Part shown: positions 1,894 to 42,384 of the stretch, in pieces
Position numbering within the stretch: the first letter of the stretch is position 1
How the letters are laid out: each line of letters opens with the position of its first letter
DNA from: Elusimicrobia bacterium HGW-Elusimicrobia-1
GTDB taxonomy: Bacteria > Elusimicrobiota > Endomicrobiia > PHAN01
Length of the DNA stretch: 64,000 nt
Direction: 5' to 3'
Assembly: GCA_002841695.1 (NCBI GenBank)
Contig: PHAN01000003.1
Span: forward strand, 164,849 to 228,848
Program-made: the position numbers and the translations under genes
Notes under the pieces: generated by a model
Database searches by the model: none
The model's input: only the letters and a program-made list of their open reading frames with translations
What the model was told of the DNA's origin: nothing

Positions 1894-3435
1894 ATGAGAG
1901 CGTTAAAGCTTTCAACGATAAACAGCTGTAAGCCCGGGCAATTGCGTTGCCGCGGGCTTTTTTATTTTGCGTCCGCGGCGTTTTTATCATCGATAATGAT
2001 TTTGTTTTTCTCCGATATACTTCTTGCAAAAACCTTCATCAGGGAACACTATTACCGCGCCGGGAAAAACGACACCGAAATCACTTCCCGGGCGATAGCG
2101 CTGCATCAGGTAAAGGCGCGGCTGCTCGAAGAAATCGGGACTTACATGGAAAGCACGTTTGAGAGCACGGAGCAGGAGGGCGGCGGTCTCGGCGGACAAT
2201 TCACGAAATATCAGATAGTAAGCATCACAGCGGGAATCACGGAGACAAAGATACTGGAAGAGCGGTGGGACGGTAAAATATATTATATAAAGGCCGAGAT
2301 AGACGTGGATATTGATGATACACGCCGTAAAATTCGGGAGATATCGCAGGATAGGGAACGGATGCGGGAAATAGAGGCGATAAACAGAAAAGCCGATGAG
2401 GCGCTAAGGCAGATAGAGATGCTGACAAAGTCAAAAAAAAGCATTCCGATAGAATACACCGGCAGCCATATTATGAAAGTGGATGGCCGCAAAGTAGTTA
2501 TCGGACTGGGCTTGCTCAACGGTGTCAGAAAAAGCCAACAATTCAAAATTATAAAATCCGACAGCAAGGTTAATCCGCGCACAGGTGTAATAGTACACAA
2601 AGAAACAGCCGTTATCGGGGCGCTTAAAGTTATAAATACCGACGAGTGGACTTCTGATTGCGTGGTGATTTCCGGCGCCGGACGTATAAAACCGGGTGAT
2701 TTGATCAGTCCTCGCGCAGAAAAGGGTATTATGGAAATTGAGGGCGCGCTGTCCAGAGCCGAACCGCTGGACGAATTTAAATTCCGCTTCAACTGGAAGT
2801 TTCCGTATTTATTCAGGATGGATTTGGGTTATCTCAGGCCGTATTTTATGGAAAGTTTCGGCGAGGCAGCATATTTGAATTTTTCTTTTGACTGGCCATG
2901 GTTTGAAATCGGCCCCGGTTTTGCGGGATTCTTTCGGTACGGTGTTCCGCTTTTCGGCGGAGCGTCGATTGTTATGAGGGTGGGCCCGTATGAAGGCCCG
3001 ATAAATATTATTTTGCGGCATAACGGTGGAAAATTTATAGGCGCCGATCCAAATCAAAGGATAAACGGATTGATAGAGACAAATTGGCGGATTTCCGGCC
3101 GTGTTTTGCTTTATGGCAGAATGCATCAATATAAAGGGTCGTGGCAGGCCGGTGAATTTTATCACGATGACAAAGGTTATCAATATAATACAAGAACTTA
3201 CGGTGGGGCGGAAATAGGTTCGGGGGATTTAAGCTTTTTTGTCCAATATGGAGATGTTTTTGAGTATTGCGCGCTCGGAAAAGACCCCCGAGTTGAGCGG
3301 AGAGGAGAATACGGTGGCGCCGGAATCAAGTTGAATATGACTCCGTTGAGATACACTTTTTCCGCCGAGGGGATAAGGGCGCTGGGCGACGACAGAAGTT
3401 TGATTTTGCGTCTGGGCATAGGTTATGAGTTTTAG
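1894..3435 (+). CDS. secreted coiled-coil / outer-membrane beta-barrel protein, paralog 1
   Basis: N-terminal signal peptide (RCRGLFYFASAAFLSSIMILFFSDILLA), a charged coiled-coil segment, then a Gly/Tyr-rich alternating-hydrophobic C-terminus ending '...LRLGIGYEF', an OMP C-terminal strand signature. The first ~170 aa are near-identical to ORF 4704..5777. Confidence 0.6.
   Translation: MRALKLSTINSCKPGQLRCRGLFYFASAAFLSSIMILFFSDILLAKTFIREHYYRAGKNDTEITSRAIALHQVKARLLEEIGTYMESTFESTEQEGGGLGGQFTKYQIVSITAGITETKILEERWDGKIYYIKAEIDVDIDDTRRKIREISQDRERMREIEAINRKADEALRQIEMLTKSKKSIPIEYTGSHIMKVDGRKVVIGLGLLNGVRKSQQFKIIKSDSKVNPRTGVIVHKETAVIGALKVINTDEWTSDCVVISGAGRIKPGDLISPRAEKGIMEIEGALSRAEPLDEFKFRFNWKFPYLFRMDLGYLRPYFMESFGEAAYLNFSFDWPWFEIGPGFAGFFRYGVPLFGGASIVMRVGPYEGPINIILRHNGGKFIGADPNQRINGLIETNWRISGRVLLYGRMHQYKGSWQAGEFYHDDKGYQYNTRTYGGAEIGSGDLSFFVQYGDVFEYCALGKDPRVERRGEYGGAGIKLNMTPLRYTFSAEGIRALGDDRSLILRLGIGYEF
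1930..1968 (+). terminator. intrinsic-terminator-like hairpin + T-tract embedded in codons 13-25 of paralog 1
   Basis: AAGCCCGGGCAA-TTGCG-TTGCCGCGGGCTT followed by TTTTTTATTTT. The stem is conserved, with compensatory changes, in copies at 4740-4778, 8002-8040 and 14690-14727. Confidence 0.4.
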
Positions 3436-4466: not shown

Positions 4467-4528
4467 CCGGACGACATATTAGAATCGGTGGATTTTTCGA
4501 TAAACCGCAATCATTTCCCGGGTTTCAA

Positions 4529-4597
4529 GTGGTTTTCGTATGAATTTTGTATGGATTACTCGTGGTTTTCGTGTGGTCTTCGTGTGGTATTTTATAG
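4529..4597. repeat. phased 11-bp repeats (GTGGTTTTCGT-like) upstream of paralog-2 promoter
   Basis: gtggttttcgt at 4529, then gtggttttcgt, gtggtcttcgt and gtggtatttta in perfect 11-bp register at 4562-4594. Confidence 0.6.
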
Positions 4598-4634
4598 TTG
4601 ATTCCGGGCGGATTAAGCCGTGTTTAGCATTGAT

Positions 4635-4663
4635 TTGAATCCACCCGTCCGAAAATGTATACT
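4635..4663 (+). promoter_or_regulatory. sigma70-type promoter TTGAAT-17-TGn-TATACT for paralog 2
   Basis: -35 ttgaat at 4635-4640, a 17-nt spacer ending in TG, and -10 tatact at 4658-4663. The ATG at 4704 follows an RBS-like 'agaggggt'. Confidence 0.55.
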
Positions 4664-4703
4664 CTGAAAAGATGAAACAGAAACAGTAACACAGAGGGGT
4701 AAA

Positions 4704-5777
4704 ATGAGAGCATCAAAGCTTTCAACGGCAAATAATCGGCAGCCCGGGCGTTTACTGCGCCGCGGGCTTTTTTATTTTGCGCCCGCGGCGTTTTTATCGT
4801 CGATGATGATTCTGTTTTTCTCCCAAGCGCTTCTTGCAAAAACATTTATAAGGGAACACTATTATCGCGCCGGCAAGCAGGATACCCAATTGACCGCCCG
4901 GGCAATTGCATTGCATCAGGTTAAGTCGCGTCTGATCGAGGAGGTCGGCACTTATATAGAAAGCGCATTTGAAAGCACGGAACGAGAAAGCAAAGCCGGG
5001 AGCGAACAATTCACGAAGCATCAGATAGTAAGCATAACCGCGGGAATCACGGAAACAAAGATACTGGAAGAGAAATGGGACGGTAAGACCTATTACATAA
5101 AAGCAGAAATTGAAGTCGACGTCGACGACACGAAGCGGCGGATAACGGAGATATCCGGCGACAGAAGCAAGATGAGAGAGATAGAAGAGATAAACCGAAA
5201 GGCCGACGATGCTTTGCGGGAAATAGAAGCGCTCAAAAAATCAAGCGGCTTACCGAAACGCGGCGGCGGTGCGTTTTATGTCGGATTGGATCTGCCCGGT
5301 ACATTCAAGGAAAACTACAGTATCGGCACATACAGCGGTGAACGACCCGTCGATTCCGGAGCCGGGGTTGCAATCGGATGGGAATACGAGGGACGCGGCG
5401 TTCCCTTGGGACTTGGTTTCGGAGCTTTTTACCAGTTGCCGAGGACGCTGACTTTTAGCGGCTCGGCTACTATCGGTTTTTCGCCGCTATATCTCCTGGG
5501 GCATTATTATGTAAACGACTTCACTTATATCATAGGTCGATTGGGATACAGTATGTATTACAGTAAAAATTTCACCACATACGCGAGCTACGCGGGCGGG
5601 TTGTATTATGCCTTCGGGCTGGGAATAAAAACGCAGGGATTCACTCTTTCCGGGGTTTACAGCGTCAATAAAAGCGAGGGCTCGGGGTTTAGCGATGTGT
5701 GGCTTTTGCCCCGCGGACCCATTTCAGGGACATTAACATACTCTCAGATTTCCATTCTCTTTAAATTATATATCTGA
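4704..5777 (+). CDS. secreted coiled-coil / outer-membrane beta-barrel protein, paralog 2
   Basis: The N-terminal ~170 aa are highly similar to paralog 1 ('MRASKLST...RRGLFYFAPAAFLSSMMILFF...KTFIREHYYRAGK...'). The C-terminus is a different Gly/Tyr-rich beta-strand region. Confidence 0.6.
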   Translation: MRASKLSTANNRQPGRLLRRGLFYFAPAAFLSSMMILFFSQALLAKTFIREHYYRAGKQDTQLTARAIALHQVKSRLIEEVGTYIESAFESTERESKAGSEQFTKHQIVSITAGITETKILEEKWDGKTYYIKAEIEVDVDDTKRRITEISGDRSKMREIEEINRKADDALREIEALKKSSGLPKRGGGAFYVGLDLPGTFKENYSIGTYSGERPVDSGAGVAIGWEYEGRGVPLGLGFGAFYQLPRTLTFSGSATIGFSPLYLLGHYYVNDFTYIIGRLGYSMYYSKNFTTYASYAGGLYYAFGLGIKTQGFTLSGVYSVNKSEGSGFSDVWLLPRGPISGTLTYSQISILFKLYI

Positions 5778-7657: not shown

Positions 7658-7770
7658 CGTTTGGCAATGTGGGTCGAGGCGGAATCATCCCGGGAAGTCG
7701 GATTGGTGAGAAGATAGGCCGCTAAAAATCGCGAAGTTTTTATGTAAACGATAAATACCCCGAATTTCGC

Positions 7771-7870
7771 GTGGTTTTTTAGTGGTTTTCGAGTGGTTGC
7801 CCCAGTGGTTTTCGTGTGGTTTTTGTGTGGCGTTCGGGTGGTGATTTATAGTGGATTTGGGGTGGTTTTG
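7771..7870. repeat. array of ~9 phased GTGG(T)TTT-N repeats (period 11-13 bp) upstream of the copy-3 promoter
   Basis: gtggtttttta / gtggttttcga / gtggttgcccca / gtggttttcgt / gtggtttttgt / gtggcgttcgg / gtggtgatttata / gtggatttgggg / tggttttg. Confidence 0.6.
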
Positions 7871-7965: not shown

Positions 7966-8043
7966 GAGAGCATCAAAGCTTTCAACGGGGGGAATTGTAA
8001 TCGCCCGGGCGTCTATTGGCGCCTCGGGCTTTTTTATTTTATG
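7966..8043 (+). pseudogene. truncated third copy of the paralog leader (26 codons), ends ATGA-overlapping the HNH gene
   Basis: 'MRASKLSTGGIVIARASIGASGFFIL*' aligns to paralogs 1 and 2 through the hairpin/T-tract (8002-8040). Similarity stops exactly after 'ttttttatttt' at 8040, where 'atgattaaaccc' begins. Confidence 0.55.
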
Positions 8044-8736
8044 ATTAAACCCGGCGATGTAATTTCTTATCAAACTATGTGTCAGGAAGAAAAATTTAGT
8101 TTACAAAAAGGTATGAATTATCACCTCGCACCTGGCTATAGTGTCATTTTGATGAGCACACAAACTGGTGCGCCATATTCAGATCGCGTCGAGGGTAATG
8201 GTAAAACGCTTATTTATGAGGGGCATGACATCCCTAAAACCAAAGGGGTCGATGATCCGAAAAAATATGATCAGCCTATGAAAAATCCAAGCGGGTCATT
8301 GACGCAAAATGGAATGTTTTTTAAGGCGGCTGGCGAGTATAAAAAGAACGCCAAAAGTCCAGAACTCGTTAAGGTTTATGAAAAAATCAGGCCTGGTATT
8401 TGGGCATACAATGGATTGTTTGAGCTTCAAGATGCTTGGATGGAAAGTGATGGCCGCCGTGACGTGTTTAAGTTTAAATTGGCAATCACGGACGAATCAC
8501 TAAGTGAAAAGAATGCTGAGCAGTCAGATATTGATCATACTCGTATAATTCCGTCGGAAGTCAAGCGTATAGTTTGGGCACGTGATAAGGGTAAGTGTGT
8601 CGAGTGTGGTGCGGTCGATAATCTTCATTTTGACCATATTATTCCTTACAGTAAAGGTGGCTCTTCGCGCGACGCAGAAAATATCCAACTTCTTTGCGCG
8701 AGACATAATTTGGCAAAGAGGGATAGGATTGGATAA
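8041..8736 (+). CDS. SRA-like domain + HNH endonuclease (putative modification-dependent type IV restriction nuclease)
   Basis: C-terminal HNH ('CVECGAVDNLHFDHIIPYSKGG...NIQLLCARHN'). The N-terminus 'GDVISYQTM...HLAPGYSVILMS...LIYEGHD...DQ...N' resembles the SRA/YDG base-flipping pattern (G.H..GI...A.SIVLSG...YTGSGG). Confidence 0.55.
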   Translation: MIKPGDVISYQTMCQEEKFSLQKGMNYHLAPGYSVILMSTQTGAPYSDRVEGNGKTLIYEGHDIPKTKGVDDPKKYDQPMKNPSGSLTQNGMFFKAAGEYKKNAKSPELVKVYEKIRPGIWAYNGLFELQDAWMESDGRRDVFKFKLAITDESLSEKNAEQSDIDHTRIIPSEVKRIVWARDKGKCVECGAVDNLHFDHIIPYSKGGSSRDAENIQLLCARHNLAKRDRIG

Positions 8737-10897: not shown

Positions 10898-13624
10898 ATG
10901 AAGAATGTAAAACATTTTCTTGTCGCCGTGGCGGTAGGGCTCACTATTTTTGCACCTCTTCGCGCCCAGCAAAAAGCCCCGCCACAAAACCTCGAAACAA
11001 AACCCATCGAATACGTTCCTGACGAGATACTTGTTATCTATAAACCCAACGCTTCGGAAAATCAAATATCTTCAATGCTTTCATCTAAGGGGTCGCTTGC
11101 CACCGGGGAGTTTTTTGCCACTCACGAGAAGAAGCGTAAAGTCAGAAGGATTAAAATAAAAAAAGGCAAGACGATTGCCGAGAGCGTCGCGGATTTCAGG
11201 AAAAATCCTCTCGTAGAACATGCTCAGCCGAACTACATTTATTATTTGAACGCAGTCCCAAACGACACTTCGTTTAATCAGCTTTGGGGGCTTAAGAACA
11301 CGGGGCAAACGGTCGACGGAACAGCCGGTACGGCGGATGCCGATATAGACGCCGATTATGCCTGGGATATAACGACGGGCACGACCGCCGTGGTGGTTGC
11401 GGTGATTGATTCGGGTATAGCGGCGGCCAATCCCGACTTGTCAGCGAACATTTGGGCCGGGAGTGGTTATGATTTTTTCGATGACGATTCGGATGCCACT
11501 GACTACAACACTCACGGAACGCATGTCGCGGGAACCATAGGCGCTGTGGGCAATAACTCAAGCGGAATAACCGGCGTTAACTGGCGCACAAAGATAATGC
11601 CCATAAAAGTTTTTGGCGTTTCGGGGAGCGGCTCCAAGAGTGATACGCTGATTAAGGGCATCAATCATGCTGTTTCCGGCGGGGCAAAAATAATAAATGC
11701 AAGTTTAAGCGGGTATGGCGGCTACGACGGAGATTTGACATATCAGGCAATACAGGCGGCGAAAAATGCCGGAGTTTTATTTGTCGCGGCAGCCGGAAAT
11801 GACGCCGACAACAACGATACCAAACCGAAATATCCGGCTTCTTACAACTTATCAAATATAATTTCTGTGGCCGCGACCGACCAGAACGATAATCTGGCGT
11901 CTTTTTCAAACTATGGGGCAACCAAAGTCCACCTTGCTGCGCCCGGCGTAAACATATACAGCACAGTGGCCATTTATGACGAGGGTTCATCAACTGTATA
12001 TAGCACGGGTTTTGACGGGGATTATACCGGAGATTGGTACACTAAAGGCACAAACAATACTTGGAGTATAAACAGTGAGCAGAGGGTTTCGTTACCTAAC
12101 AGTTTACAAGACAGCCTTGGCGGAAATTACACCGATAATCTGGTGTCTACACAGACCTTTGCTTACTGCAATACGCCCATCACTTACACCAAGGACAGTA
12201 AATACTTTTTGAACTTCAAAGTTAGATATGACCTTGAGAATAATTATGACTTTCTTGACATAATTGTTTCTGTTGATAAAACCAACTGGTTGCCGCTTTA
12301 TCTGTTCACGGGAAACAGTAATGACAGAAGAACGGGATCATCAGGCGGTGTTTTTTCACAGGCATCTATAGATATAACATCTTTGGTTGAAGTATATGGA
12401 GTGCGTTATTTCGGTTTCGGCATTTCATCCGACTCCTCATATAATTACGACGGGGTTTATATAGATGATGTTAGTGTTGTCCGTAAGCCACTAAGCATAA
12501 ACTCTTATTCTCTTGCTTACAAAGACGGCACCTCGATGGCCGCGCCGCATGTGGCCGGAGCGGCGGCACTTGTGTTGGCATCCAATCCAAACTTAAGTGT
12601 CGAACAATTGCGCGCAGTGTTACTCGGTGGCGTCGAACAGAAAGCGTCTTTGAGCGGTAAGGTTTCGACGGGAGGGCGTCTGAATGTATTTAAGGTGATG
12701 TCTATACCCGTTGCTCCGTCGGGAGTGGCGGGCGCGGCGCTTTCTACATCCTCAATACGATGGACTTGGAACGATAACTCCGTCAATGAGAAAAAATTCA
12801 TAGTCAAAAATGCGGCGGGGGGAACCTTGGTAGAGGTTTCGTCTAATATTGTGCAGTGGGTTCAGGGAGGACTGTCCCCGAATACGTCTGCCAGTGTGTC
12901 TATAGCGGCATACAACGACGCGATATCCGACTACAGCGAGTCATTCTGGTATCAGTGGTCATCATTGCTTTCCGGTCAGGTCTACACCCTCGCCAACCCG
13001 CCTGTGCAACCAGCCGTTTCCTCCGCTTCCAAAGCGGGCGGTATTGCGCTTTCATGGGGCGCCAACGGGAATCCCTCGCAGACCCGCTGGCCGATACAAA
13101 GAGCAAAAAACGACGGCGATTTTTCAACTATCGTCGACTCCGACGATGCACTTACGGATATAACCTATACCGACCATGCTATAACAGGCGGCTCTACTTA
13201 TTATTATCGCATAGCCGCGCTGAACGGTGATACCGTTGCGTCATCTTTTGCCTTGACAGTTTCCACGTATATCTCCACGCAAGATCCTACGAACCCGTCG
13301 GAGGAACCGACACTTGCTCGCGGCGAGGCCGGGGTGCAGTATGTGAGCGCAGGCGTCGATAGGGGATATTTTAATCCGTCTGCCGGTGAAAAAGTAAATA
13401 TTTATTTCGTGCCTGCTGTCGACGGCGTCGTTAAGATAAGCATTACGCCTCTCGACGGAAGCGCGGCCTATACCGAGGAAAAAAATGTTTCTGCGGGCCG
13501 CTCCGCTTTCTTTGAGTGGCGCGGGACGTTTCACGGAGGAAGAACGGCGACAAGCGGAATATATCCTGCCTTTATTGAAGGCGCGGGAATCAGGAAAATA
13601 AAAAAGATATGCGTGATTCGATAA
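10898..13624 (+). CDS. subtilisin-like S8 serine peptidase with Fn3/Ig-like repeats and a T9SS-type (Por_Secre_tail/FlgD-Ig-like) C-terminal domain
   Basis: Catalytic triad motifs 'VAVIDSGI', 'HGTHVAGTIGA' and 'GTSMAAPHVAGAAALV'. N-terminal signal peptide. C-terminal 'GEKVNIYFVPAVDGVVKISITPLDGS...SGIYPAFIEGAGIRKIKKICVIR' resembles a type-A T9SS sorting domain. Confidence 0.75.
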   Translation: MKNVKHFLVAVAVGLTIFAPLRAQQKAPPQNLETKPIEYVPDEILVIYKPNASENQISSMLSSKGSLATGEFFATHEKKRKVRRIKIKKGKTIAESVADFRKNPLVEHAQPNYIYYLNAVPNDTSFNQLWGLKNTGQTVDGTAGTADADIDADYAWDITTGTTAVVVAVIDSGIAAANPDLSANIWAGSGYDFFDDDSDATDYNTHGTHVAGTIGAVGNNSSGITGVNWRTKIMPIKVFGVSGSGSKSDTLIKGINHAVSGGAKIINASLSGYGGYDGDLTYQAIQAAKNAGVLFVAAAGNDADNNDTKPKYPASYNLSNIISVAATDQNDNLASFSNYGATKVHLAAPGVNIYSTVAIYDEGSSTVYSTGFDGDYTGDWYTKGTNNTWSINSEQRVSLPNSLQDSLGGNYTDNLVSTQTFAYCNTPITYTKDSKYFLNFKVRYDLENNYDFLDIIVSVDKTNWLPLYLFTGNSNDRRTGSSGGVFSQASIDITSLVEVYGVRYFGFGISSDSSYNYDGVYIDDVSVVRKPLSINSYSLAYKDGTSMAAPHVAGAAALVLASNPNLSVEQLRAVLLGGVEQKASLSGKVSTGGRLNVFKVMSIPVAPSGVAGAALSTSSIRWTWNDNSVNEKKFIVKNAAGGTLVEVSSNIVQWVQGGLSPNTSASVSIAAYNDAISDYSESFWYQWSSLLSGQVYTLANPPVQPAVSSASKAGGIALSWGANGNPSQTRWPIQRAKNDGDFSTIVDSDDALTDITYTDHAITGGSTYYYRIAALNGDTVASSFALTVSTYISTQDPTNPSEEPTLARGEAGVQYVSAGVDRGYFNPSAGEKVNIYFVPAVDGVVKISITPLDGSAAYTEEKNVSAGRSAFFEWRGTFHGGRTATSGIYPAFIEGAGIRKIKKICVIR

Positions 13625-14544
13625 ATAATTTAAGAGTATTCACAAACAGATGGGCCATGTCGGCGGCAGTTGTATCCGCGCTTTTTTTTGCCGCCGGAAT
13701 TTGCCGGGCCGAAATACTACTTACAAAACCGCCGTCGGCCCGCCTTGCCGCAAGCGAGGTCTTCGCAGCCACCGACGGACTTCCGTCGTCTCTGCTCGTT
13801 AACCCGGCGATGATAGCCGTTTCAGATTACTCGCTCGAAACCTCGGTATCAAGAGGTTTTATGGGCGACGACGCATATTATTACGCGGGTGCGGTTAAAA
13901 ACTTTCAAAGAAAAGTCGACCAAAAGAACTTTGGCGATATCCGCGCGGGCATTTTCGTCGGTCACTATGATGGCGGTCCGCTTGAGTTTTATGACAGTTT
14001 GGGTCGTGCCCGTACGGTGAAAGCGCAAAGCGATTATATGGCCGCCATCGGCGTTAGCGCCGTGCGCGGCGAGGGCTCTATCGGAGCGGGCGTCAAGATT
14101 TATTCTTCTCGTCTCGCCGACTATGCCGCTGCCTCCGCGATTGCTTTTGATATAGGCACTATTTCCCGCGACCCGAAGAGTGATTTTTTTGTGGGGTTTG
14201 CCGTGAAAAATATCGGCTCGTCGATGAAATACATCACCGAGGAAGAAAAACTTCCTCTGACTGCGGCCTGTATCATCGGCGCGGCCGGGAAAAATTATAC
14301 TGCCGGCGTTAACATCCCATATAACGTGCGCGACGCGATACTTTCGCCAGAGGCGGGTGTTGAGGCGATTATCGACGGGACTTTTTTTCTTCGCGGCGGA
14401 TACAAAAGCAGTGCCGTCGAGACTTTCGCCGTAGGTTTTGGGCTTAATCTTGCCGCGCGTTCGCTCAGACTCGACTACACTATGGGCATAAACAAGATTT
14501 TTGAAAATACACACAGCATCTCGATTTCTTATTCGCCACGTTGA
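13609..14544 (+). CDS. outer-membrane beta-barrel protein, PorP/SprF-like (NPA motif)
   Basis: Signal peptide 'MSAAVVSALFFAAGICRA', then 'SSLLVNPAMIAVSD' resembling the PorP/SprF N-terminal 'NPAxAG' motif, followed by alternating beta-strand sequence. An alternative start lies at 13657. Confidence 0.4.
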   Translation: MRDSINNLRVFTNRWAMSAAVVSALFFAAGICRAEILLTKPPSARLAASEVFAATDGLPSSLLVNPAMIAVSDYSLETSVSRGFMGDDAYYYAGAVKNFQRKVDQKNFGDIRAGIFVGHYDGGPLEFYDSLGRARTVKAQSDYMAAIGVSAVRGEGSIGAGVKIYSSRLADYAAASAIAFDIGTISRDPKSDFFVGFAVKNIGSSMKYITEEEKLPLTAACIIGAAGKNYTAGVNIPYNVRDAILSPEAGVEAIIDGTFFLRGGYKSSAVETFAVGFGLNLAARSLRLDYTMGINKIFENTHSISISYSPR

Positions 14545-14579
14545 CAAAACGTGCAAGATTGTGTTTTGCATGGCACCGC

Positions 14580-14608
14580 TTGACACGCCCCGACCAGATT
14601 TGTAGAAT
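14580..14608 (+). promoter_or_regulatory. sigma70 promoter TTGACA-17-TGn-TAGAAT
   Basis: ttgaca at 14580-14585, 17-nt spacer, tgtagaat at 14601-14608. It drives a ~110-nt unit ending at the 14690-14727 terminator. Confidence 0.5.
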
Positions 14609-14689
14609 TATCTCGTATGAAGTAAATGGTCATGCGGGGGTTGGATGAAAGTTTGTATGCTTTCGGGGAAAAACGGTTCAAAAAAATGA

Positions 14690-14727
14690 CAGCCCGTGCG
14701 GCTTTCTGCCGCCGCGGGCTTTTTTGG
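14690..14727 (+). terminator. rho-independent terminator (4th copy of the leader hairpin family)
   Basis: AGCCCGTGCGGC-TTTCT-GCCGCCGCGGGCT followed by TTTTTT. Sequence-similar to the hairpins at 4740-4778 and 8002-8040. Confidence 0.6.
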
Positions 14728-14827
14728 TTTACGGTTGAACCATGATTGGTTGGAGTATTGCACGGAAAGTAGCAGTTCGTCTTTGCTGCTTACGCGGATA
14801 GTATAGTATTTGTGTGGTGGTAATGGA

Positions 14828-15289
14828 ATGATAACAGCAGAATCAAAATTACGCGTTGCTGTAAAAACCCTTCAGAGTGCTAGAAAAAAACTCCACGCCG
14901 ATTTCCCAGAATGGAATTTCACTCTCGACGGCAAGCTTATTGGTGACATTGGCGAAGCATACGCAAAAGCACATTTTAGCCTTGTAAAAATAGATAGTAA
15001 TAGTAAAGCTCACGACTTTAAGGCGCCCGACGGACGTCTTGTACAGGTCAAAATTACCCAAAAAAAGACATTGGGACTGGGGATCTCTGCTCCTACCTTC
15101 GACTATTTTATAGCTCTTTGCTTGAGTGAAAATGGAGATTTCCAAGTCGTTTACAATGGCAAAGGTTCTAGAGTGTATAAGCGTAAAGGGCACCCCCCGA
15201 AAAAATCCATTTCTGTAATAAAACTGAAAGAATTAAATAAGCAGGTGGATAAATCGGAAACAATTCCCAGTAAGCAGAACACCAAATAA
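14828..15289 (+). CDS. small PD-(D/E)xK-like nuclease-fold protein (cargo gene A)
   Basis: 'GDIGEAYAKAHF' is a helix with a conserved Glu; 'AHDFKAPDGRLVQVKI' gives D...QVK, a PD-(D/E/Q)xK-like arrangement. Alternative start at 14810. Confidence 0.3.
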   Translation: MITAESKLRVAVKTLQSARKKLHADFPEWNFTLDGKLIGDIGEAYAKAHFSLVKIDSNSKAHDFKAPDGRLVQVKITQKKTLGLGISAPTFDYFIALCLSENGDFQVVYNGKGSRVYKRKGHPPKKSISVIKLKELNKQVDKSETIPSKQNTK

Positions 15290-15426
15290 GTAAATGTACC
15301 GGATACTCGTTCCTCGTGACGATGGTTATTGTATCAAGTGTCTATGAAAATAACTCTAAAGGTTATCGGAGATATGCTTGTATCTTTAATTTAGTTTGTG
15401 GCCGCGAACGATAACTATGTATTCAC

Positions 15427-16404
15427 ATGATGGCAATAATAACCATGCCGACTGATGAAGAGCTGGAGCAAGCAAATAGATTTCGCACCTATCTGAACTA
15501 TCTCAGTGCAATTTCTGATTTTCTCGGAGATGTTTACGCTCACCCGGAAAGTATTATCAGTCCGATAGTACAGACATCAGTATTCCAATCAATCCAAGGC
15601 GGGCGTAGCATAGACACCGGAAGAATGGCTGAGCTATTACGCAACGCGTGGTTCACAGAGATTCAAATGAGAATTTCTGCTCAGTATGATGAATTCGTTT
15701 CTTACTCCAACCATTGGATACCCGTTCAAGCTTATTACGCAAGCTATTTGGCCCTCCGCGCCTATTTCAATGCAAGCGGACAAACTGTTGGACGAGAGCA
15801 TGGTTCAAATCTTAAGGCGATTGCCGAGGAAATTAGTCGCCGACCGCTTTTATACCCTCAACCTTGGCGTGTGGTTTGTGCCGGTAATCCTGAAACTTCA
15901 GATTGTCAACTGCGCCATCTCCCGAATGATGTCACCGTCTCTCCAATTTCAAGTCTCATGTCAAGTTGGCGAGTTTCATTTTGGGATTCTTATGCTAAGT
16001 TTTTAAGAACTACACGCCTGCGCCATTTGCAAAAGCAATGCGATGATTGGAAGGAATCTAACAATCGCAAGCGTGTCTGCTCGAATGTCAAACGACGATT
16101 CATAGATAATTTATCTCCGACAACACTGTTCCATTGCCTTTATCGTTTACGTTTGCGCTCAAACTATTCCGATGCTGACTCGTTCCTTCTGTCTGTTGCC
16201 GGTTCTGCCGATGGTATATCTTTTCATGCCGCCTTGCGGAAAATTTGTTGGGGCACGCTCTTGATATTGGAAACTCTCACTGCCCGATATATCGGTAAGC
16301 TTGAATTTGAAAATATTGTCAATAGTTTCAGACGCTATGAACGTAGTGCGGTCTCTGATGAATTAATTGGCCTTCGATGGGAGAAGGTTCGTTCTCTGTG
16401 GTGA
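15427..16404 (+). CDS. hypothetical protein (cargo gene B), no recognisable motif
   Basis: 325-aa ORF in the AT-rich island with no identifiable domain. Confidence 0.4.
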   Translation: MMAIITMPTDEELEQANRFRTYLNYLSAISDFLGDVYAHPESIISPIVQTSVFQSIQGGRSIDTGRMAELLRNAWFTEIQMRISAQYDEFVSYSNHWIPVQAYYASYLALRAYFNASGQTVGREHGSNLKAIAEEISRRPLLYPQPWRVVCAGNPETSDCQLRHLPNDVTVSPISSLMSSWRVSFWDSYAKFLRTTRLRHLQKQCDDWKESNNRKRVCSNVKRRFIDNLSPTTLFHCLYRLRLRSNYSDADSFLLSVAGSADGISFHAALRKICWGTLLILETLTARYIGKLEFENIVNSFRRYERSAVSDELIGLRWEKVRSLW

Positions 16405-16502
16405 GATTTGCGCGTGCCGAGACCATTTAGAACTAAAGTTGTAATGATCAGGGTAAAGGTTATTGGGAACGCGATAGTAAACAAAGGAGGGTGATTACTA
16501 TT

Positions 16503-17291
16503 ATGATAGAATTATTGAAGCGTTGCGCTATGAATTATTCGACACTGTCTTGCTGCCATCCGCAACCCCATACGTGCGATTGTCCCTCCTGTTTCCACGA
16601 CGGTTTTCGTGGGGGAAAAGATATATATAATTGTCCCAAAAAGGTTAATTACTACGTCATAAATTATGGCCCATCCTTTGTCAGTGAAATCTATCATTAT
16701 TTAAGCAATTCTCAAATTCTTGAAAATAATTTCATGAACAAGAAAATAAAAATATTGTCATTAGGATGTGGTTTCGCCCCAGATTTTTTGGCTGCCACTA
16801 AGTATATTTCAGACAATGACTTATCAATGAGCATTGATTATCATGGAATAGATATGAACGATAGTTGGAAATCCGCAAGATATGAGCTCACAGGTGCCCG
16901 ATTTTCGACTGACGATGTAAGCGTGAATATCGATCTTTCGGGCTATGATATTGTGATAATAGGCAAATTGTTTTCAACGCTTATGAAAAATTCCCTTGGG
17001 GGCAAATTTCTTGACACGTTTAGATGGGCGGTATCAAGTCAACTTAAGAAAAGTGCTTTTGTTATTTTTAATGACATCAATAGTCGGAATAAGGGGCGGG
17101 ATGTATTTCATAACAGAGTGTGTGACCTTTTTACTAGCGTTCGTCAATATTATTGCGATGATCCTCCATACAAAGGCGCGAGTTGGATACCAATCCCAGA
17201 GAATCATATTGTTTGTAGTATTCCTATTGGTTTTGAGCACAGCCCGCTGAGAGAAATAAGACAAAGCGTATTTTTTGAGTATAAAAAATAA
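16503..17291 (+). CDS. Zn-ribbon + class-I SAM-methyltransferase-like protein (cargo gene C)
   Basis: N-terminal Cys cluster 'CCHPQPHTCDCPSCFH...CPKK'. 'KILSLGCGFAPDF' is Rossmann motif I (hh(D/E)hGxGxG); 'YHGIDMN' and 'DIVIIG' fit motifs II and IV. RBS 'aaaggagg'. The track start is GTG at 16491. Confidence 0.4.
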   Translation: MIELLKRCAMNYSTLSCCHPQPHTCDCPSCFHDGFRGGKDIYNCPKKVNYYVINYGPSFVSEIYHYLSNSQILENNFMNKKIKILSLGCGFAPDFLAATKYISDNDLSMSIDYHGIDMNDSWKSARYELTGARFSTDDVSVNIDLSGYDIVIIGKLFSTLMKNSLGGKFLDTFRWAVSSQLKKSAFVIFNDINSRNKGRDVFHNRVCDLFTSVRQYYCDDPPYKGASWIPIPENHIVCSIPIGFEHSPLREIRQSVFFEYKK

Positions 17292-17294
17292 CTT

Positions 17295-18230
17295 ATGATA
17301 ATAAGTGCCAGTCGGCGCACAGATATTCCCGCCTTTTATTCTGAATGGCTGTTTAATCGGTTTAGAGAGAGCTATTTGTTGGTGAGAAATCCCATGAATA
17401 TTCATCAGATAAGCCGTATTAATTTATCGCCACAGTTGATTGATTGTATCGTATTCTGGACAAAAAACCCAGCAGGAATGCTTAATAGATTGAACGAATT
17501 AAGGGGTTACGATTACTATTTTCAGTTTACGATTACCGGGTATGGTAAGAGTTTGGAGCCTAATGTGGCGGCACTCAATCAGAGGTTGGATATTTTTAAG
17601 ACTTTATCTGATAAAATAGGCAAAAAACGAGTAATTTGGCGTTATGACCCGATAATATTTTCAAACGATTTTGACGTTCAATATCACGTAAAAATGTTCA
17701 AGTATATCGCACAAGAGTTGGAAGGTAAAACCCAAAGGTGTGTTATTAGTTTCGTGGATTTTTATAAAAAAATACTGAAAAATATGTCATCAGTTGGACC
17801 GGCTAATTTCGATAATGCTTACTTGTTTGAAGTTGCAAATGCCCTGTCGAACGTTTCTTCGAGACATAATATAGAATTGACAAGTTGTGCTGAAGAAGTC
17901 GATCTTGCCAAATACGGGATATCCCATGGTAAGTGCATTGATGATAAACTGATCGAGGAAATCTTTAATATTCGATTAGATATTGCCAAAGATAAAACGC
18001 AAAGAGAAGAGTGCGGTTGTGTTGCCAGTATTGACATCGGTGCTTATAACACATGCCCCAACGGGTGTTTGTATTGTTACGCTAATTATGATATGAATAA
18101 GGTTCGGCATAACTATTCTTTGCATGACCCCGAGTCCCCACTCTTGTTTGGAGATATTGGGGCTAACGATAAAATAACAGAAAGAAAATTAAAAAGTTGT
18201 AAGGTGTATCAAAGGGGTTTGTTTTCTTAA
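17295..18230 (+). CDS. DUF1848-like protein with C-terminal Cys cluster (cargo gene D)
   Basis: The N-terminus 'MIISASRRTDIPAFYSEW' matches, as I recall it, the characteristic start of the DUF1848 family. The C-terminus 'CGCVASIDIGAYNTCPNGCLYCYAN' is a Cys-rich putative metal/Fe-S site. Starts 4 nt after gene C. Confidence 0.45.
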   Translation: MIISASRRTDIPAFYSEWLFNRFRESYLLVRNPMNIHQISRINLSPQLIDCIVFWTKNPAGMLNRLNELRGYDYYFQFTITGYGKSLEPNVAALNQRLDIFKTLSDKIGKKRVIWRYDPIIFSNDFDVQYHVKMFKYIAQELEGKTQRCVISFVDFYKKILKNMSSVGPANFDNAYLFEVANALSNVSSRHNIELTSCAEEVDLAKYGISHGKCIDDKLIEEIFNIRLDIAKDKTQREECGCVASIDIGAYNTCPNGCLYCYANYDMNKVRHNYSLHDPESPLLFGDIGANDKITERKLKSCKVYQRGLFS

Positions 18231-18297
18231 ATTTTTTTTTGACATCCCGCCGGAAAGTTCAATTTAAAGCCCCCCAAAAACGTCTCTTAAAAAACCC

Positions 18298-18326
18298 TTG
18301 ACTTCCGGTAGATTTTTTATTACAAT
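18298..18326 (+). promoter_or_regulatory. sigma70 promoter TTGACT-17-TACAAT followed by a palindromic operator-like site
   Basis: ttgact at 18298-18303, 17-nt spacer, tacaat at 18321-18326. Inverted repeat atacatgta-caaca-catgtatat at 18327-18350. Confidence 0.45.
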
Positions 18327-18382
18327 ATACATGTACAACACATGTATATGTAATTAATTAAACCCCATTGGGGGATTCTACC

Positions 18383-19324
18383 ATGAATGCGCAAAGATTA
18401 AAAAAGCGTTTACCTAGTTCAGATGAAACTCAACCGTCACAGAAGATTTGCCGGATCGTAGCCACGCCGGAAGCCGAAAAAGACCTTCGTCAAAATGTGG
18501 ATAGACGGATAGATGAACTGGTTAAACGTCGTAGTGCCCAAGCCGTTGATATCGATAAGGCGGCCGGAGAGCAAAAAACTATAAGCCCTAAAGATGAGGC
18601 CACTGTGGTCAAGAAAATCAAACAACTGAATGATAAGTATTTTGCCGCAAATATTATTGAACACACTGTATGTAAAGAGCGCCGTCTCGCCCTTGGTCAG
18701 GTAAAGAAGATAGCGGGGCTTACTCGACGTCAAATAATATACTGGCAGTCAGTAGATGCGATGTTTTTTGGGCAGGAGGGCGCTTATGACCCTCGGAGAT
18801 TTTCCATTGGCGATGTTATCAAGTTGATGATTATAAAAGAGATTAAGCAAAACACGGGCATACCGCCGAAAAGATTAAACAGGTTTGTCTCGTGGATTCA
18901 AAGATATAACATCGTCGACGCCCGTCTTCACGATTTTTCCGTCGGGCGGGATATTTTTCTTTATTCGGATTTAAAGTCAATCTGGTATTCCGGTCACGGC
19001 GTGGACGGTCGGGTCCCGCAGAAATGGGGAGATAAACCGATTGTCCTTATGCCGCTCAATGATATTTTCAAAAAAGTATTGCTTAATCCTGCGGTTTTCT
19101 CCGATAAGTTTCGAGTCGAGAAACAGGGCGAGCAGTTTGTTTATTTTATAAACGGCAAGAAGTTCGATTTTGCGTCGTATAAGAATCATCCGAACCCGGG
19201 CGGACTCAAATTAACACTTCAAAAATCCGACTTGCCTATAGTTTTCAACTATCGAGTAAAGAAATACGCACTTCATAGCACTGATGGCGGAGGCCTTGTA
19301 CTGAAAAACGCTGAGTCAAAATAG
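18383..19324 (+). CDS. hypothetical protein with MerR/excisionase-like HTH segment (cargo gene E)
   Basis: 'LGQVKKIAGLTRRQIIYWQSV' resembles a MerR-superfamily HTH. RBS 'ggggga' 7 nt upstream of the ATG. The track start is TTG at 18368. Confidence 0.4.
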   Translation: MNAQRLKKRLPSSDETQPSQKICRIVATPEAEKDLRQNVDRRIDELVKRRSAQAVDIDKAAGEQKTISPKDEATVVKKIKQLNDKYFAANIIEHTVCKERRLALGQVKKIAGLTRRQIIYWQSVDAMFFGQEGAYDPRRFSIGDVIKLMIIKEIKQNTGIPPKRLNRFVSWIQRYNIVDARLHDFSVGRDIFLYSDLKSIWYSGHGVDGRVPQKWGDKPIVLMPLNDIFKKVLLNPAVFSDKFRVEKQGEQFVYFINGKKFDFASYKNHPNPGGLKLTLQKSDLPIVFNYRVKKYALHSTDGGGLVLKNAESK

Positions 19325-19399
19325 AAGTCGAATAAAAATATTTCCAAACACTTTCTCTGTTCGTAATAACTAAACGGGAATCAGTCCCGTGGGTGTGAG

Positions 19400-19454
19400 C
19401 CGACAGAGCAGGGTATGCTTGAGGAAAAGCACGCACCCGCTCTGTCGGTTTTTA
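19400..19454 (+). terminator. rho-independent terminator
   Basis: CCGACAGAGC ... GCTCTGTCGG stem followed by TTTTTATTTT. Confidence 0.55.
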
Positions 19455-19718: not shown

Positions 19719-19901
19719 ATGGAAAGAAAACTACTAAAAGTCGCCGAGGCCGCGGAATATCTTGGCACGACGGAAGGCACGCTTTACGTCTGGGTTTGCA
19801 GGAAACGCATCCCTCATATAAAAATGGGCCGCAAGTTGATGTTTGACGTCTCGGATTTGGAGAAATGGATAGCATCGCAGAAAATCCCCGCGGAATCGTG
19901 A
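19719..19901 (+). CDS. AlpA/Xis-family excisionase-type HTH protein
   Basis: 'KVAEAAEYLGTTEGTLYVWVCRKRIPHIKMGRKLMFDVSDLEKWI' matches the phage excisionase/AlpA HTH_17 pattern. RBS 'aaaggag'. The track ORF starts at 19608. Confidence 0.6.
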   Translation: MERKLLKVAEAAEYLGTTEGTLYVWVCRKRIPHIKMGRKLMFDVSDLEKWIASQKIPAES

Positions 19902-19946: not shown

Positions 19947-21197
19947 TTGAGGGGGTATATTATGAGATTATTCAAAAAATGTTCTCATTGCCGGAGCCAG
20001 TTCGCGGCGACGAAGATAACCGCTGCCGCCGAAGCGGCCAAATGCCCCAAGTGCGGGGCGTCTCTTCGCGGTGCCCAGTGGTATATCGACTACTACGTGG
20101 GCTACGAGCGTAAGAGAGAGGCCGTCGGCACACAAAAGCGTTTCGCCGAGGAAGTCATAGCCAAGCGCCGCATCGAGATAAAAGAGGGGAAGTTCTTTGA
20201 CAGAAAAAAAGAGAGCGTGCACAGATTAAAAGAAATCCTCGACGACTTTCTGGCGTATTCCAAAACCAACAAGAAATCCTATGAGCGCGACATCGGACTC
20301 GTCAAGCAGCTTCTGACTTACTTCGACGGCTCCAAGCGCCTTGAGGCGGTAACGCCGATCCTCATCGAACAATACAAAGGCAAACGCCTCAACGCCGACG
20401 GAAGAAAGCCCGCGACGGTAAACCGCGAACTCGCCTGCCTCAAGTGCGCTTTCAACTGGGCGATAAAAAACGCCAAGGCGTCGGCGAACCCCGTGCGAAG
20501 CGTCAAACTCTTGAAAGAAAACAATATGCGCTTGCGCTATCTCTCGCAAGAAGAAATCGGACGGCTTCTTAACGCCTGTCCGACGACGATAAGGCGCATC
20601 GTGACCGCCGCGCTTCACACCGGAATGCGCCTGGGGGAAATACTTCCTCTCAAATGGGAAGACATTGATTTCGCTCAGAATATCATCATCCTCAAAAATA
20701 CCAAAAGCGGCCGGATGAGAGAAATCCCGATAAACGGGGTTTTGCGCAAAACGCTCAATGAGTGCCGCAAAAACACGGATGAAGTCCACGTCTTCTGCAA
20801 CGAATCGGGCGTGCCTTATCGCAGTATCAATAGCATGTTCCAGCGCATAATCAAGAAAGCGGGCATTGCCGATTTCCGGTTCCACGATTTGCGCCATACG
20901 GCGGCATCATACATGGTCATGTTGGGCATACAACTTGCCACCGTAAGGGAGATTTTGGGCCATCAGAGCATCAATATGACGCTCAGGTATGCCCACCTGT
21001 CTCAGGAGCACAAACTCACGGCAATGGAGATGTTGGGGACGCGACTCGACACCCTTTCGACACCCCGACCCCCCGATGGCCAAAACACCCGAAAAGAGGG
21101 TGATGAGAAAAGTATTGATATTTCAGCATTTTTGAGTAATCTGGAGAGGTCGCCTAGTGGTTTAGGGCGGCGGTTTGCTAAACCGCTGTCCCGCTAA
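19947..21197 (+). CDS. int: tyrosine recombinase (phage-type integrase), C-terminal tail reads into tRNA-Ser
   Basis: Catalytic-domain motifs 'RLGEILPLKWEDIDF', 'HDLRHTAASYMVMLG' and 'LGHQSINMTLRYAHL'. N-terminal zinc ribbon (CSHCRS...CPKCG). The last ~18 codons (stop at 21195-21197) are tRNA sequence. Confidence 0.8.
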   Translation: MRGYIMRLFKKCSHCRSQFAATKITAAAEAAKCPKCGASLRGAQWYIDYYVGYERKREAVGTQKRFAEEVIAKRRIEIKEGKFFDRKKESVHRLKEILDDFLAYSKTNKKSYERDIGLVKQLLTYFDGSKRLEAVTPILIEQYKGKRLNADGRKPATVNRELACLKCAFNWAIKNAKASANPVRSVKLLKENNMRLRYLSQEEIGRLLNACPTTIRRIVTAALHTGMRLGEILPLKWEDIDFAQNIIILKNTKSGRMREIPINGVLRKTLNECRKNTDEVHVFCNESGVPYRSINSMFQRIIKKAGIADFRFHDLRHTAASYMVMLGIQLATVREILGHQSINMTLRYAHLSQEHKLTAMEMLGTRLDTLSTPRPPDGQNTRKEGDEKSIDISAFLSNLERSPSGLGRRFAKPLSR

Positions 21198-21231
21198 AGC
21201 GGGACCGGGGGTTCGAATCCCCCCCTCTCCG
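21143..21231 (+). tRNA. tRNA-Ser (anticodon GCU), long variable arm
   Basis: Acceptor GGAGAGG/CCTCTCC. Anticodon loop TT-GCT-AA in stem GCGGCGG/ACCGCT. Long variable arm GTCCCGCTAAAGCGGGAC. T-arm GGGGGTTCGAATCCCCC. Discriminator G. Confidence 0.8.
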
Positions 21232-21486
21232 ATACCTTTTGAACAGACAGAAAGCTTTTTGGTAAGTCGAGTAAGGGCAGTTTGGGCTCTTTCGGAGACA
21301 AAATATACACCACGCCGTCATTTAAGCAAGACGCTCCGCATCTTTACCTGAAAGCCGCGGACGTCTTCGGCAACGTCGCAATCAGCGGCAAAAATTGACG
21401 GATTTCGCCGCATCTCTCTATAAAATCCAAATCCAATCGGCGTTCGATGCCCCCGTCGGCGCCTTGATAATTTCAAAGGGGGCACA

Positions 21487-22552: not shown

Positions 22553-22765
22553 ATGGAAAAACAACTGGGTAAATTGATAAGCAAGTTGTCCGAAGTCAAC
22601 ATCACGCTTTGGCATGAGGAAGATAAGGCCCGCGTCGACGATGACCATCAAATCGCCGCGGCCAAAAGAAACATCGACAAATTGAACCAGCAGAGAAATG
22701 ACCTGATTGAACAAATTGATGAGTGCGTATTAAGCATATACAGGGAGGGAAAAAGCAATGGCTGA
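22553..22765 (+). CDS. small DUF4254-like protein (paralog a)
   Basis: 70 aa, paralogous to the next ORF ([17 protein letters not shown]...[11 protein letters not shown] vs [18 protein letters not shown]...[11 protein letters not shown]). I recall this family as associated with GT9 heptosyltransferase genes. Confidence 0.4.
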
Positions 22766-23030
22766 AACTGTGGGGAGTTTGGTCGACAAAATAACTATCG
22801 CCGACTTAAAAATATTTCATATGGGCGAACAAACTAAACGCAACGATGCCGGCGCCGAGCATATTATAAAATGCAAACAGCGGATAGATATTATGGTTTT
22901 GCAAAGGGATGACTTGATTAATGAGTTGAATCAACTTGTGAAAGATATTTTTTCCGGGGAATATAAGCCGAAAATGTATCGGCAATTCAAGATGTATAAC
23001 GACCCGAAATACGGGATAAAAACAAAATAA
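22758..23030 (+). CDS. small DUF4254-like protein (paralog b)
   Basis: See previous entry; the two ORFs overlap by 8 nt. Confidence 0.4.
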
Positions 23031-23088
23031 AACCAAATCACGTTTTGACATAAGCATAGTTTTACTGCGGCGGCATAAGAGCTTTTTT

Positions 23089-41920: not shown

Positions 41921-41922
41921 AG

Positions 41923-41991
41923 CAGTGGATAGTGGTTAGTGGCGAGTAAAAGCAAAAAGTTTTTCTAACCACTAACCACTAACCACTTTTT
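41923..41991 (+). terminator. hairpin built from CCACTAACCACT repeats + T-tract
   Basis: agtggttagtgg ... ccactaaccactaaccact followed by ttttt. Confidence 0.45.
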
Positions 41992-42018
41992 GTTACAGTT
42001 CCGTCAAAAATGTATAAT
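41990..42018 (+). promoter_or_regulatory. sigma70 promoter TTGTTA-17-TGn-TATAAT
   Basis: ttgtta at 41990-41995, 17-nt spacer, tgtataat at 42011-42018. Confidence 0.5.
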
Positions 42019-42067
42019 TTCCGAGTTACATGCTCCGGGAAAGTGAAAATAATTGAATAAAAAACAC

Positions 42068-42096
42068 TTGACAAAATTATATGCTTATAGTATGAT
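42068..42096 (+). promoter_or_regulatory. sigma70 promoter TTGACA-17-TATGAT upstream of mazEF
   Basis: ttgaca at 42068-42073, 17-nt spacer, tatgat at 42091-42096. Confidence 0.5.
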
Positions 42097-42137
42097 AATA
42101 GTAGTATTAAAATTATAAATTACAGCGGAGGCGCATT

Positions 42138-42383
42138 ATGAATACTGCTAAACTAACCGTTACTATTCCTTGTGATAAATATGAGAGGATAGAAAAAGAG
42201 AAAAAGCAAAAGGGTCTTAATAGAAGCGCTTTTGTTAATCTGATGATATCCTTTTTTTTCCAGGAAGAAGATGAGGCGGAGAAGGTTAAGAGATATATAT
42301 CCGGCTATAAGAAAAAACCCGAGGACATAAAGAAAATAGCCGCCTTTGAAAATATCCAGTCAAAATCATTGGGGGAATTTTAG
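42138..42383 (+). CDS. mazE: ribbon-helix-helix antitoxin (MazE/CopG-like)
   Basis: 'KLTVTIPCDKYERIEKEKKQKGLNRSAFVNLMI' has the RHH beta-strand and helices. RBS 'ggagg'. Confidence 0.6.
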   Translation: MNTAKLTVTIPCDKYERIEKEKKQKGLNRSAFVNLMISFFFQEEDEAEKVKRYISGYKKKPEDIKKIAAFENIQSKSLGEF

Positions 42384-42384
42384 C

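Follow-up and report, generated by a model that had tools for sequence, protein, structure and literature searches.

The window analysed here, a stretch of DNA of 64,000 nucleotides (nt), belongs to an uncultured Elusimicrobia (Endomicrobiia-like) bacterium known from a metagenome-assembled genome (MAG); a 357-amino-acid (aa) protein that it encodes (4704–5777) is 100% identical to CVU77_02825 of "Elusimicrobia bacterium HGW-Elusimicrobia-1". The subject of this analysis is a short unit at positions 14580–14727, termed U4, which resembles three leader copies in the same window (L1, L2 and L3) and a further leader copy (L5) on the Logan contig L131. A first-pass annotation had placed a promoter, an ATGAAAG…GCTTTC segment and a hairpin terminator at this locus, and all three are present, the segment occupying 14645–14664. 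The accompanying statements that the reading frame is broken by a stop after 14 codons and that the unit measures ~110 nt agree with an open reading frame (ORF) at 14645–14689 and with a predicted promoter-to-terminator RNA of ~111 nt. The features of U4 are as follows.

14580–14585, + strand: −35 hexamer TTGACA, with a 17-nt spacer to the −10
14603–14608, + strand: −10 hexamer TAGAAT, directly preceded by TG (TGTAGAAT; TGTATACT in the L copies) and aligned column for column with the −10 of L1–L3 and L5
14615–14725, + strand: predicted ~111-nt transcript, its start placed ~7 nt past the −10 and its end at the end of the T-tract
14626–14745, + strand: alternative 39-codon ORF without a good Shine–Dalgarno (SD) sequence, crossing the hairpin as ...CRRGLFWF in the frame homologous to RRGLFYF of the paralogous genes headed by L1 and L2
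14636–14640, + strand: SD-like GGGGG, 4 nt 5′ of the ATG; GGG is invariant in five of five family members
14645–14689, + strand: 14-codon ORF (MKVCMLSGKNGSKK, then a stop codon 1 nt before the terminator stem), its ATG homologous to the start codon of the paralogs
14646–14665, + strand: predicted hairpin H1, with 7 base pairs (bp) and a 6-nt loop (UGAAAGU-UUGUAU-GCUUUCG), covering the UG of the start codon
14691–14720, + strand: terminator stem-loop AGCCCGTGCGGC-TTTCT-GCCGCCGCGGGCT, GC-rich, 12 bp, with a conserved single-base bulge in the 3′ arm (GCC-G-CGGGC)
14720–14725, + strand: T6 tract directly after the terminator hairpin

The promoter of U4 (TTGACA-17-TAGAAT) matches the sigma-70 consensus at 11 of 12 positions and sits 36 nt past the stop codon of the upstream operon; the TG that had been annotated as part of its −10 lies in the spacer, immediately next to the hexamer. 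Sites with at least 11 of 12 matches occur five times in the window as compared with ~0.9 times in shuffled sequences, an approximately five-fold enrichment, and those inspected fall in intergenic DNA; hence, sigma-70-type promoters look meaningful in the source organism. An A7 run at 14680–14686, upstream of the terminator, can lengthen the stem. The frame of U4 that crosses the hairpin begins not at the conserved ATG but at another ATG, which has no SD. A reading of RRGLFYF in the paralogs as a Tat signal was rejected, as L1 lacks the twin arginine.

U4 as a member of a leader family

The leader modules with which U4 was compared lie at the following positions in the window, the score of each being that of the covariance model described below; the fifth family member, L5, heads a 75%-identical paralog on contig L131.

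1826–1963, + strand: leader module L1, heading a 513-aa paralog (1894–3435); 104.5 bits
4635–4773, + strand: leader module L2, heading the 357-aa paralog (4704–5777); 118.8 bits
7896–8035, + strand: solo leader module L3, with a 26-codon ORF whose stop overlaps the ATG of an SRA-HNH gene (8041–8736); 104.1 bits

A covariance model (R1) was trained on L1, L2, L3 and L5, with U4 left out, and was used to scan both strands of the window with filters off. The scan recovered the three training copies present in the window, and its sole other significant match was U4 (14604–14729), which scored 28.8 bits (E~5e-4, by a rough calibration) over model positions 1–107, the full length of the model; the intact copies score 97–119 bits, and the next unrelated match in the window scored 14.4 bits (E 0.7). 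Because the full-length match was obtained although U4 had been left out of the training, U4 is, as judged from its sequence, a true if much-diverged member of the family, that is, a genuine fourth copy in the window of a module composed of promoter, leader and terminator, which is also how the first-pass annotation had read it. The likeness that the annotation had seen between the hairpin of U4 and those inside the paralog ORFs is equally borne out: the pattern GCCCGNGC-N6-14-GCCNCGGGCTTTTTT has exactly four matches in 64 kb, all on the + strand, where none is expected, and the bulged terminator GCCCGNGC-N-GCCNCGGGC followed by T6, present in U4 at 14692–14725, likewise has four matches in the window against an expectation of 0. 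When the whole of U4 was aligned and compared with shuffled sequences, z scores of 10 to L2 and 6.9 to L3 were obtained, the signal coming mainly from the terminator.

The elements of the family, namely the −35, TGTAnAnT, GGGG, ATG, H1, bulged terminator and T6, are found in U4 in the same order and spacing, and an H1 of 7 bp with a 6-nt loop and a GCUUUC 3′ arm is common to L1, L2, L3, L5 and U4. In contrast, only U4 has a 9-nt A-rich insertion between the hairpins and a longer terminator stem, its H1 loop differs at 4 of 6 bases, and its promoter is closer to consensus than those of the parent modules (11/12 vs 9/12). Its frame is also shifted, and its ORF stops before the hairpin, whereas the ORFs of L1, L2 and L5 continue into the paralog and that of L3 crosses the hairpin to reach the ATG of the next gene; no paralog follows U4.

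Several other elements accompany some of the copies. A third arm (GCGCCCGCGGCG) in L1, L2 and L5 pairs perfectly with the 3′ arm of the terminator and is followed by TTTTTAT, making a second, overlapping terminator-like hairpin inside the ORF (1945–1987 in L1, 4755–4797 in L2 and L131 427–470 in L5); both the third arm and the second hairpin are missing from L3 and U4. Tandem arrays of an 11-nt repeat (GTGGTTTTCGT-like) lie at 4534–4588 and 7765–7869, just 5′ of the promoters of L2 and L3, the array before L3 comprising ~9 copies; such arrays, which could be binding arrays for a regulator or a recombinase, are absent from L1, L5 and U4. The paralogs (1894–3435 and 4704–5777) share an N-terminal domain of ~150 aa (FIREHYY...ITETKILEE..W) for which there is no Pfam model. 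This domain is fused to beta-barrel-like C-termini in the paralogs and to TPR repeats in homologues from Bacteroidota, Cloacimonadota and Marinimicrobia (P0004–P0120).

Conservation and distribution of the module

Folding predicted H1 and the terminator independently in five of the five family sequences, and in the five-way alignment 96.5% of the stem cells pair (100% for H1), as compared with at most 54% when the 3′ partners were slid. Four H1 pairs vary on one side with pairing kept, and one terminator pair shows a compensatory change (GC to AU); the predicted two-hairpin structure is consistent, but covariation does not prove it. In the paralogs, changes in codons 1–20, which contain H1 and the 5′ arm of the terminator, are spread evenly over the codon positions (e.g., 7, 7 and 6), with nonsynonymous changes far above synonymous ones; codons 46–95 show a strong third-position bias (e.g., 3, 3 and 16), as in a protein under selection. 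The 3′ arm of the terminator and the T-tract are invariant in the alignment of the leader copies. The even distribution of changes, together with this invariance, therefore indicates that the gene starts are conserved as nucleic acid rather than as peptide, and the pattern of substitution points to a module that functions at the RNA level.

A scan of the whole window against Rfam at gathering thresholds and permissive scans of 14300–15000 and 4500–4850 returned only tRNA and chance-level matches, and a BLAST search with U4 gave no match in E. coli genomes, plasmids or phages. A strict pattern fitting all five sequences had 0 matches in 185,579 reference genomes, from which the species itself is apparently absent or masked, and 0 in viral contigs, and a pattern fitting the L copies only had 0 matches in the reference genomes. 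A loose hairpin pattern, applied to metagenomes, matched at least 120 unrelated terminators or contigs and one recurrent gut coding sequence, and the ATGARAG start occurred in none of the matches listed; since so many unrelated contigs are matched, the hairpin alone is generic. On an Endomicrobiia MAG contig, L132, the region of the PorV-like gene that precedes U4 has 86% nt identity to the window; this contig ends 58 nt after the stop codon, the shared homology extends to window position 14567, 13 nt short of the −35, and the final bases of the contig (AAGAAATGTT) give no more than a hint of an L-type −10. On contig L133, which carries a 44%-identical relative of the upstream gene, a tRNA-Asn stands at the corresponding place. 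As far as these searches extend, the module appears to be lineage-restricted, confined to one ~25.9-kb tRNA-Ser-integrated island of one Elusimicrobia bacterium, with L5 representing a related lineage.

The proposed role of U4

U4 separates two groups of genes of the same orientation.

10898–14544, + strand: upstream operon, encoding an S8 subtilase (908 aa) and a PorV/PorQ-like outer-membrane protein (311 aa; weak PorV/PorQ relatives)
14828–19324, + strand: AT-rich five-gene cluster, encoding DUF6998 (methyl-directed restriction-endonuclease-like), a 325-aa protein, a methyltransferase-like protein, DUF1848 and a 313-aa protein

The other copies provide information on how a gene can lie behind such a module. 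In L1, L2 and L5 the terminator is located inside the ORF, 40–70 nt past the ATG. At L3, the SRA-HNH gene is intact and starts 5 nt after the T-tract, without an SD and with no room for a promoter, and the leader ORF traverses the hairpin and the T-tract to stop at TTATGA (8036–8043), which contains the SRA-HNH ATG. Because there is neither an SD nor space for a promoter, and because stop and start overlap, it appears that SRA-HNH can be produced only via read-through and translational coupling to the L3 leader; the terminator of the module would then have to be read through. The arrangement at L3 therefore suggests that the module is a working 5′ control region that was set before a heterologous gene at least once.

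In the case of U4, 100 nt separate the T-tract from the first downstream ORF, and 14728–14828, between the terminator and DUF6998, contains no other + strand promoter-like site. No other terminator-like site was found between the stop codon of the upstream operon and the U4 terminator, and a terminator-like hairpin, read by eye, follows the five-gene cluster at ~19389–19450. A cis-acting leader is favoured over a small RNA (sRNA) because the SD and ATG are retained and the downstream operon has no other promoter. U4 would thus act in cis, as a promoter and a translation-sensitive attenuator for the five-gene cluster: its promoter would be the only good one before the cluster (DUF6998 through the 313-aa gene), and transcripts would either end at ~14725, giving the ~111-nt RNA, or continue into the cluster. 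Read-through would probably depend on a ribosome translating the 14-codon ORF: terminating 1 nt ahead of the stem, this ribosome would occupy the 5′ arm of the terminator. In L1, L2 and L3, where the ORF crosses the hairpin, the hairpin would be melted by a ribosome that follows RNA polymerase closely. The U4 terminator would, in addition, end the S8/PorV-like operon. The combined proposal, a cis-acting promoter and attenuator for the downstream cluster and a terminator for the upstream operon, is advanced tentatively, with somewhat less than even confidence; most likely, U4 would serve as a switch for the restriction-type genes in the block that follows.

The closest known systems are the ribosome-dependent attenuators of the E. 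coli pyrBI leader and of trp/his-type leaders, in which the leader ORF reaches or crosses the terminator. As in these leaders, the module runs from a promoter through an SD and a short ORF to an intrinsic terminator whose 5′ arm a ribosome could occlude, and is followed by co-directional genes. Unlike them, it lacks runs of regulatory codons and a demonstrable antiterminator helix, its "leader" in L1 and L2 is the first ~33 codons of a structural gene, in the signal-peptide region, and it is reused before unrelated genes (an outer-membrane-protein-like paralog, SRA-HNH and the DUF6998 cluster); it has no sequence or Rfam relation to those attenuators.

There are two other main readings. U4 might be an inert relic left from the 5′ end of a paralog that has since lost its body; only the terminator of U4 would then matter, as the end of the S8/PorV-like operon, and the promoter match would be residual. 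We regard this as unlikely, yet as a serious possibility, given that its homologous frame is interrupted, with no paralog body behind it, that U4 is by its bit score the most diverged copy (28.8 vs 97–119 bits), that nothing else resembling a terminator follows the stop codon of the upstream operon, and that the homology of L132 ends before the −35. However, its decay is uneven: positions of U4 that match some L copy amount to 52/59 in the promoter hexamers, SD, ATG, stems and T-tract as compared with 58/98 elsewhere (Fisher p=7e-5), a contrast that argues against uniform decay but is inflated by the anchoring of the alignment. The term "degenerate" in the first-pass annotation is too strong, the elements being retained while the spacers have diverged. 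Moreover, the −35 and −10 are nearer to consensus than in the intact copies, and the changes in the H1 stem are all compatible with pairing, while 4 of 6 loop bases have changed. Alternatively, U4 might be a stand-alone gene for a trans-acting sRNA, possibly of dual function with its 14-aa peptide, that shares the terminator of the upstream operon. A near-consensus promoter, closer to consensus than those of the parent modules, and a strong terminator lie ~111 nt apart, as such a gene would have them, and the arrangement recalls type I sRNAs derived from 3′ untranslated regions (e.g., DapZ and MicL in enterobacteria), which have their own promoter and share the terminator of the mRNA: the U4 promoter likewise lies just past the upstream stop (36 nt), and its terminator is common with the upstream operon. 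Those sRNAs, however, have seed regions and share the conservation of their host gene, whereas in the closest relative of the gene upstream of U4 (L132) homology to the window stops 13 nt short of the −35. A pure riboregulator, furthermore, needs no SD and ATG at the correct spacing, yet U4 retains both; its sense is the same as that of the other leaders, with which it therefore cannot pair; complementarity within the window does not exceed chance (only 10–12-mers at E ≥0.6); and neither Rfam nor BLAST gave matches, nor did the family pattern in the 185,579 genomes and the viral contigs. An attenuator-derived trans-acting sRNA with a 14-aa leader peptide is documented in Sinorhizobium meliloti as rnTrpL/peTrpL (PMC6614838). 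U4 resembles it in that a ~110-nt RNA encoding a 14-aa peptide would arise from termination in the leader, but is not homologous to it and has no tryptophan codons or known targets; an action of the U4 RNA in trans on this model would be pure speculation, and the sRNA reading as a whole is considered unlikely.

The annotation had offered the hairpin and T-tract as a recombination or insertion hotspot for foreign cassettes, and in both L3 and U4 the family homology does end a few bases from the T-tract, with low-GC restriction-type genes next. Cassettes also move at the L131 locus, as indicated by a ~27-nt direct repeat that flanks its paralog cassette; this repeat, however, is the 3′ end of a cupin gene and not the hairpin. 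The real attachment (att) sites of the island are 45-nt tRNA-Ser repeats 25.9 kb apart, no att-like repeat links the U4 junction (14700–14900) to the integrase/tRNA end, and comparison of the sequences after the U4 and L3 terminators, with one another and with the tRNA, showed no significant likeness (p=0.15, 0.43 and 0.72). Two junctions are, in addition, too few for statistics and are explained equally well by selection for a complete module, so that a hotspot appears very improbable. A match of TGGTTTA(C/G)GG to the tRNA D-loop was rejected (p=0.43; p=0.15 for the likeness of the L3 and U4 post-terminator sequences). Barely less improbable is a portable expression-and-attenuation cassette whose terminator edge would be a cassette junction, with defence or restriction blocks swapped in behind the copies at L3 (SRA-HNH) and U4 (DUF6998 cluster); if true, this would amount to an integron-like promoter and capture point without an integron integrase, in which the in-ORF terminator would silence toxic nucleases unless translation were coupled to transcription. 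A chance co-occurrence of a promoter-like match and a generic GC-rich terminator is the least credible explanation: hairpins of the form GCCCGNGC...CGGGCTTTTT are indeed generic, as the at least 120 unrelated metagenome contigs matched by the loose pattern attest, but the covariance-model match is full length with all elements in the correct order and spacing, the bulged 3′ arm is common to all four copies, and the stricter family pattern has no match in the reference genomes. In L131, the ~27-nt repeat occupies 218–246 and 1549–1575, which suggests that the leader-plus-paralog cassette was inserted or duplicated there as a unit.

Like the inflated conservation contrast, the following points weigh against U4 as a cis-acting attenuator. 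Its terminator is strong (12 bp, T6 and an upstream A-tract), and read-through may consequently be negligible. Folds of shortened nascent RNAs revealed no clear antiterminator; in these truncated folds, the SD region pairs with the 5′ arm of the terminator in four of the five sequences, at energies not better than those of shuffled sequences (z −0.5 to −1.7). An internal promoter-like site at 18298 (10/12) leaves room for more than one operon in the cluster. The covariation is not significant against shuffles (124/500), the five sequences representing two or three near-identical lineages, and, with the terminator removed, the alignment of U4 is marginal (z just 1.9–2.8 against shuffles). The same-species contigs, finally, are all base-identical and thus carry no population signal.

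To our knowledge, the phylum of the source organism has no characterised RNA regulators, and if the cis-attenuator reading is true, an undescribed leader family would be added from such a phylum. A strong intrinsic terminator within the first ~25 codons of the controlled genes would then gate expression by the coupling of transcription and translation, and one ~140-nt module would have been reused before unrelated genes in a single mobile island, including methyl-directed nuclease-like genes, providing a testable example of how islands wire new, potentially toxic cargo into an existing control element. If U4 is only a relic, the finding is ordinary. The U4 module being lineage-restricted, its interest is modest unless transcripts show regulated read-through.

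The surrounding island

The right end of the island that carries U4 comprises the following features.

19719–19901, + strand: HTH_17 excisionase-like gene of the island
19947–21197, + strand: tyrosine integrase, its ORF overlapping the first ~55 nt of the tRNA-Ser
21142–21232, + strand: tRNA-Ser(GCU), the integration target
21139–21183, + strand: right copy of a 45-nt direct repeat (attR core), the left copy being at 3218–3262 of contig L003

L003, a same-species JGI contig, shares 13,435 nt with the window without a single difference and reaches 8 kb further left. Its positions 3218–3262, which lie 4.8 kb left of window position 1, are a perfect 45-nt copy, composed of ATCT and tRNA positions 1–41. 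These direct repeats of the 5′-half of the tRNA-Ser mark, by their sequence and position, the two bounds of a ~25.9-kb integrative island, and the Logan contigs break within the repeated tRNA segment, which fits an island bounded by repeats. The island contains DpnII-type restriction-modification genes, Mrr, both paralogs, four modules, the S8/PorV-like pair and the AT-rich cluster; because all four modules lie inside it, U4 is not at the integrase-defined edge. The placement of U4 at the left edge of acquired DNA is therefore not upheld, there being no repeat at its junction, and the description of U4 as abutting foreign DNA is misleading, since U4 and the DNA upstream are themselves inside the integrated island. 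The claim that AT-rich DNA begins within ~25 nt of the T-tract is right in that the GC content falls, from about 0.52 to 0.34–0.47 between 14800 and 19300, but composition cannot place a boundary within 25 nt, and the first ORF is 100 nt on. In practical terms, the boundary of the island is to be moved from the U4 hairpin to the tRNA-Ser 5′-half repeat.

The element supplies the 5′ part of the tRNA, with an integrase ORF overlap of ~55 nt, which is the mirror image of the usual arrangement at the 3′-end. A 20-nt repeat (CGACACCCTTTCGACACCCC) is found ~100 nt inside each end of the island (L003 3369–3388 and window 21047–21066), accompanied near the right end by a tandem CGACACCC at 21058–21076; these 20-nt repeats are candidate arm-type binding sites of the integrase. 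No empty site was found by way of the heptosyltransferase gene to the right of the tRNA, as the same-species contigs all carry the island and the contigs L136 and L137 of relatives have a short flank. In a 93%-identical relative (L134), tRNA position 1 is exactly where the homology to the window begins, and upstream of it stands a different, decayed integrase; the tRNA-Ser(GCU) is thus a recurrent target among the relatives, the fragmented integrase of L134 (1–1530) occupying the same position. Contig L135 (449–506) retains only tRNA positions 34–91 of a truncated tRNA-Ser, and L136 (102–194) has an intact tRNA-Ser with no integrase within its 100 nt of flank.

On the other side of the tRNA, 21276–21394 preserves a remnant of a gene for a 185-aa membrane protein, with 73% identity over ~120 nt. 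In L135–L137 this gene stands intact, flanked by the tRNA and the heptosyltransferase gene; hence, a deletion beside the 3′ side of the tRNA is indicated in the lineage of the window. Gene calling divides the DUF4254 gene (22553–23033; L125 11067–11544) into two adjacent ORFs, of 70 and 90 aa, in all assemblies of the species and in relatives, which reflects either a conserved split or a programmed frameshift. Farther away, a weak covariance-model match at 42191–42259 was rejected as a module, as inspection showed an RHH antitoxin gene. In this region (41920–42400), a long inverted repeat of GTGGTTAGTGG-type units follows a gene ending at 41920 and is succeeded by a strong promoter (42068, 11/12), downstream of which lie the RHH antitoxin-like ORF and, in an AT-rich patch, a second ORF that may be its toxin partner.

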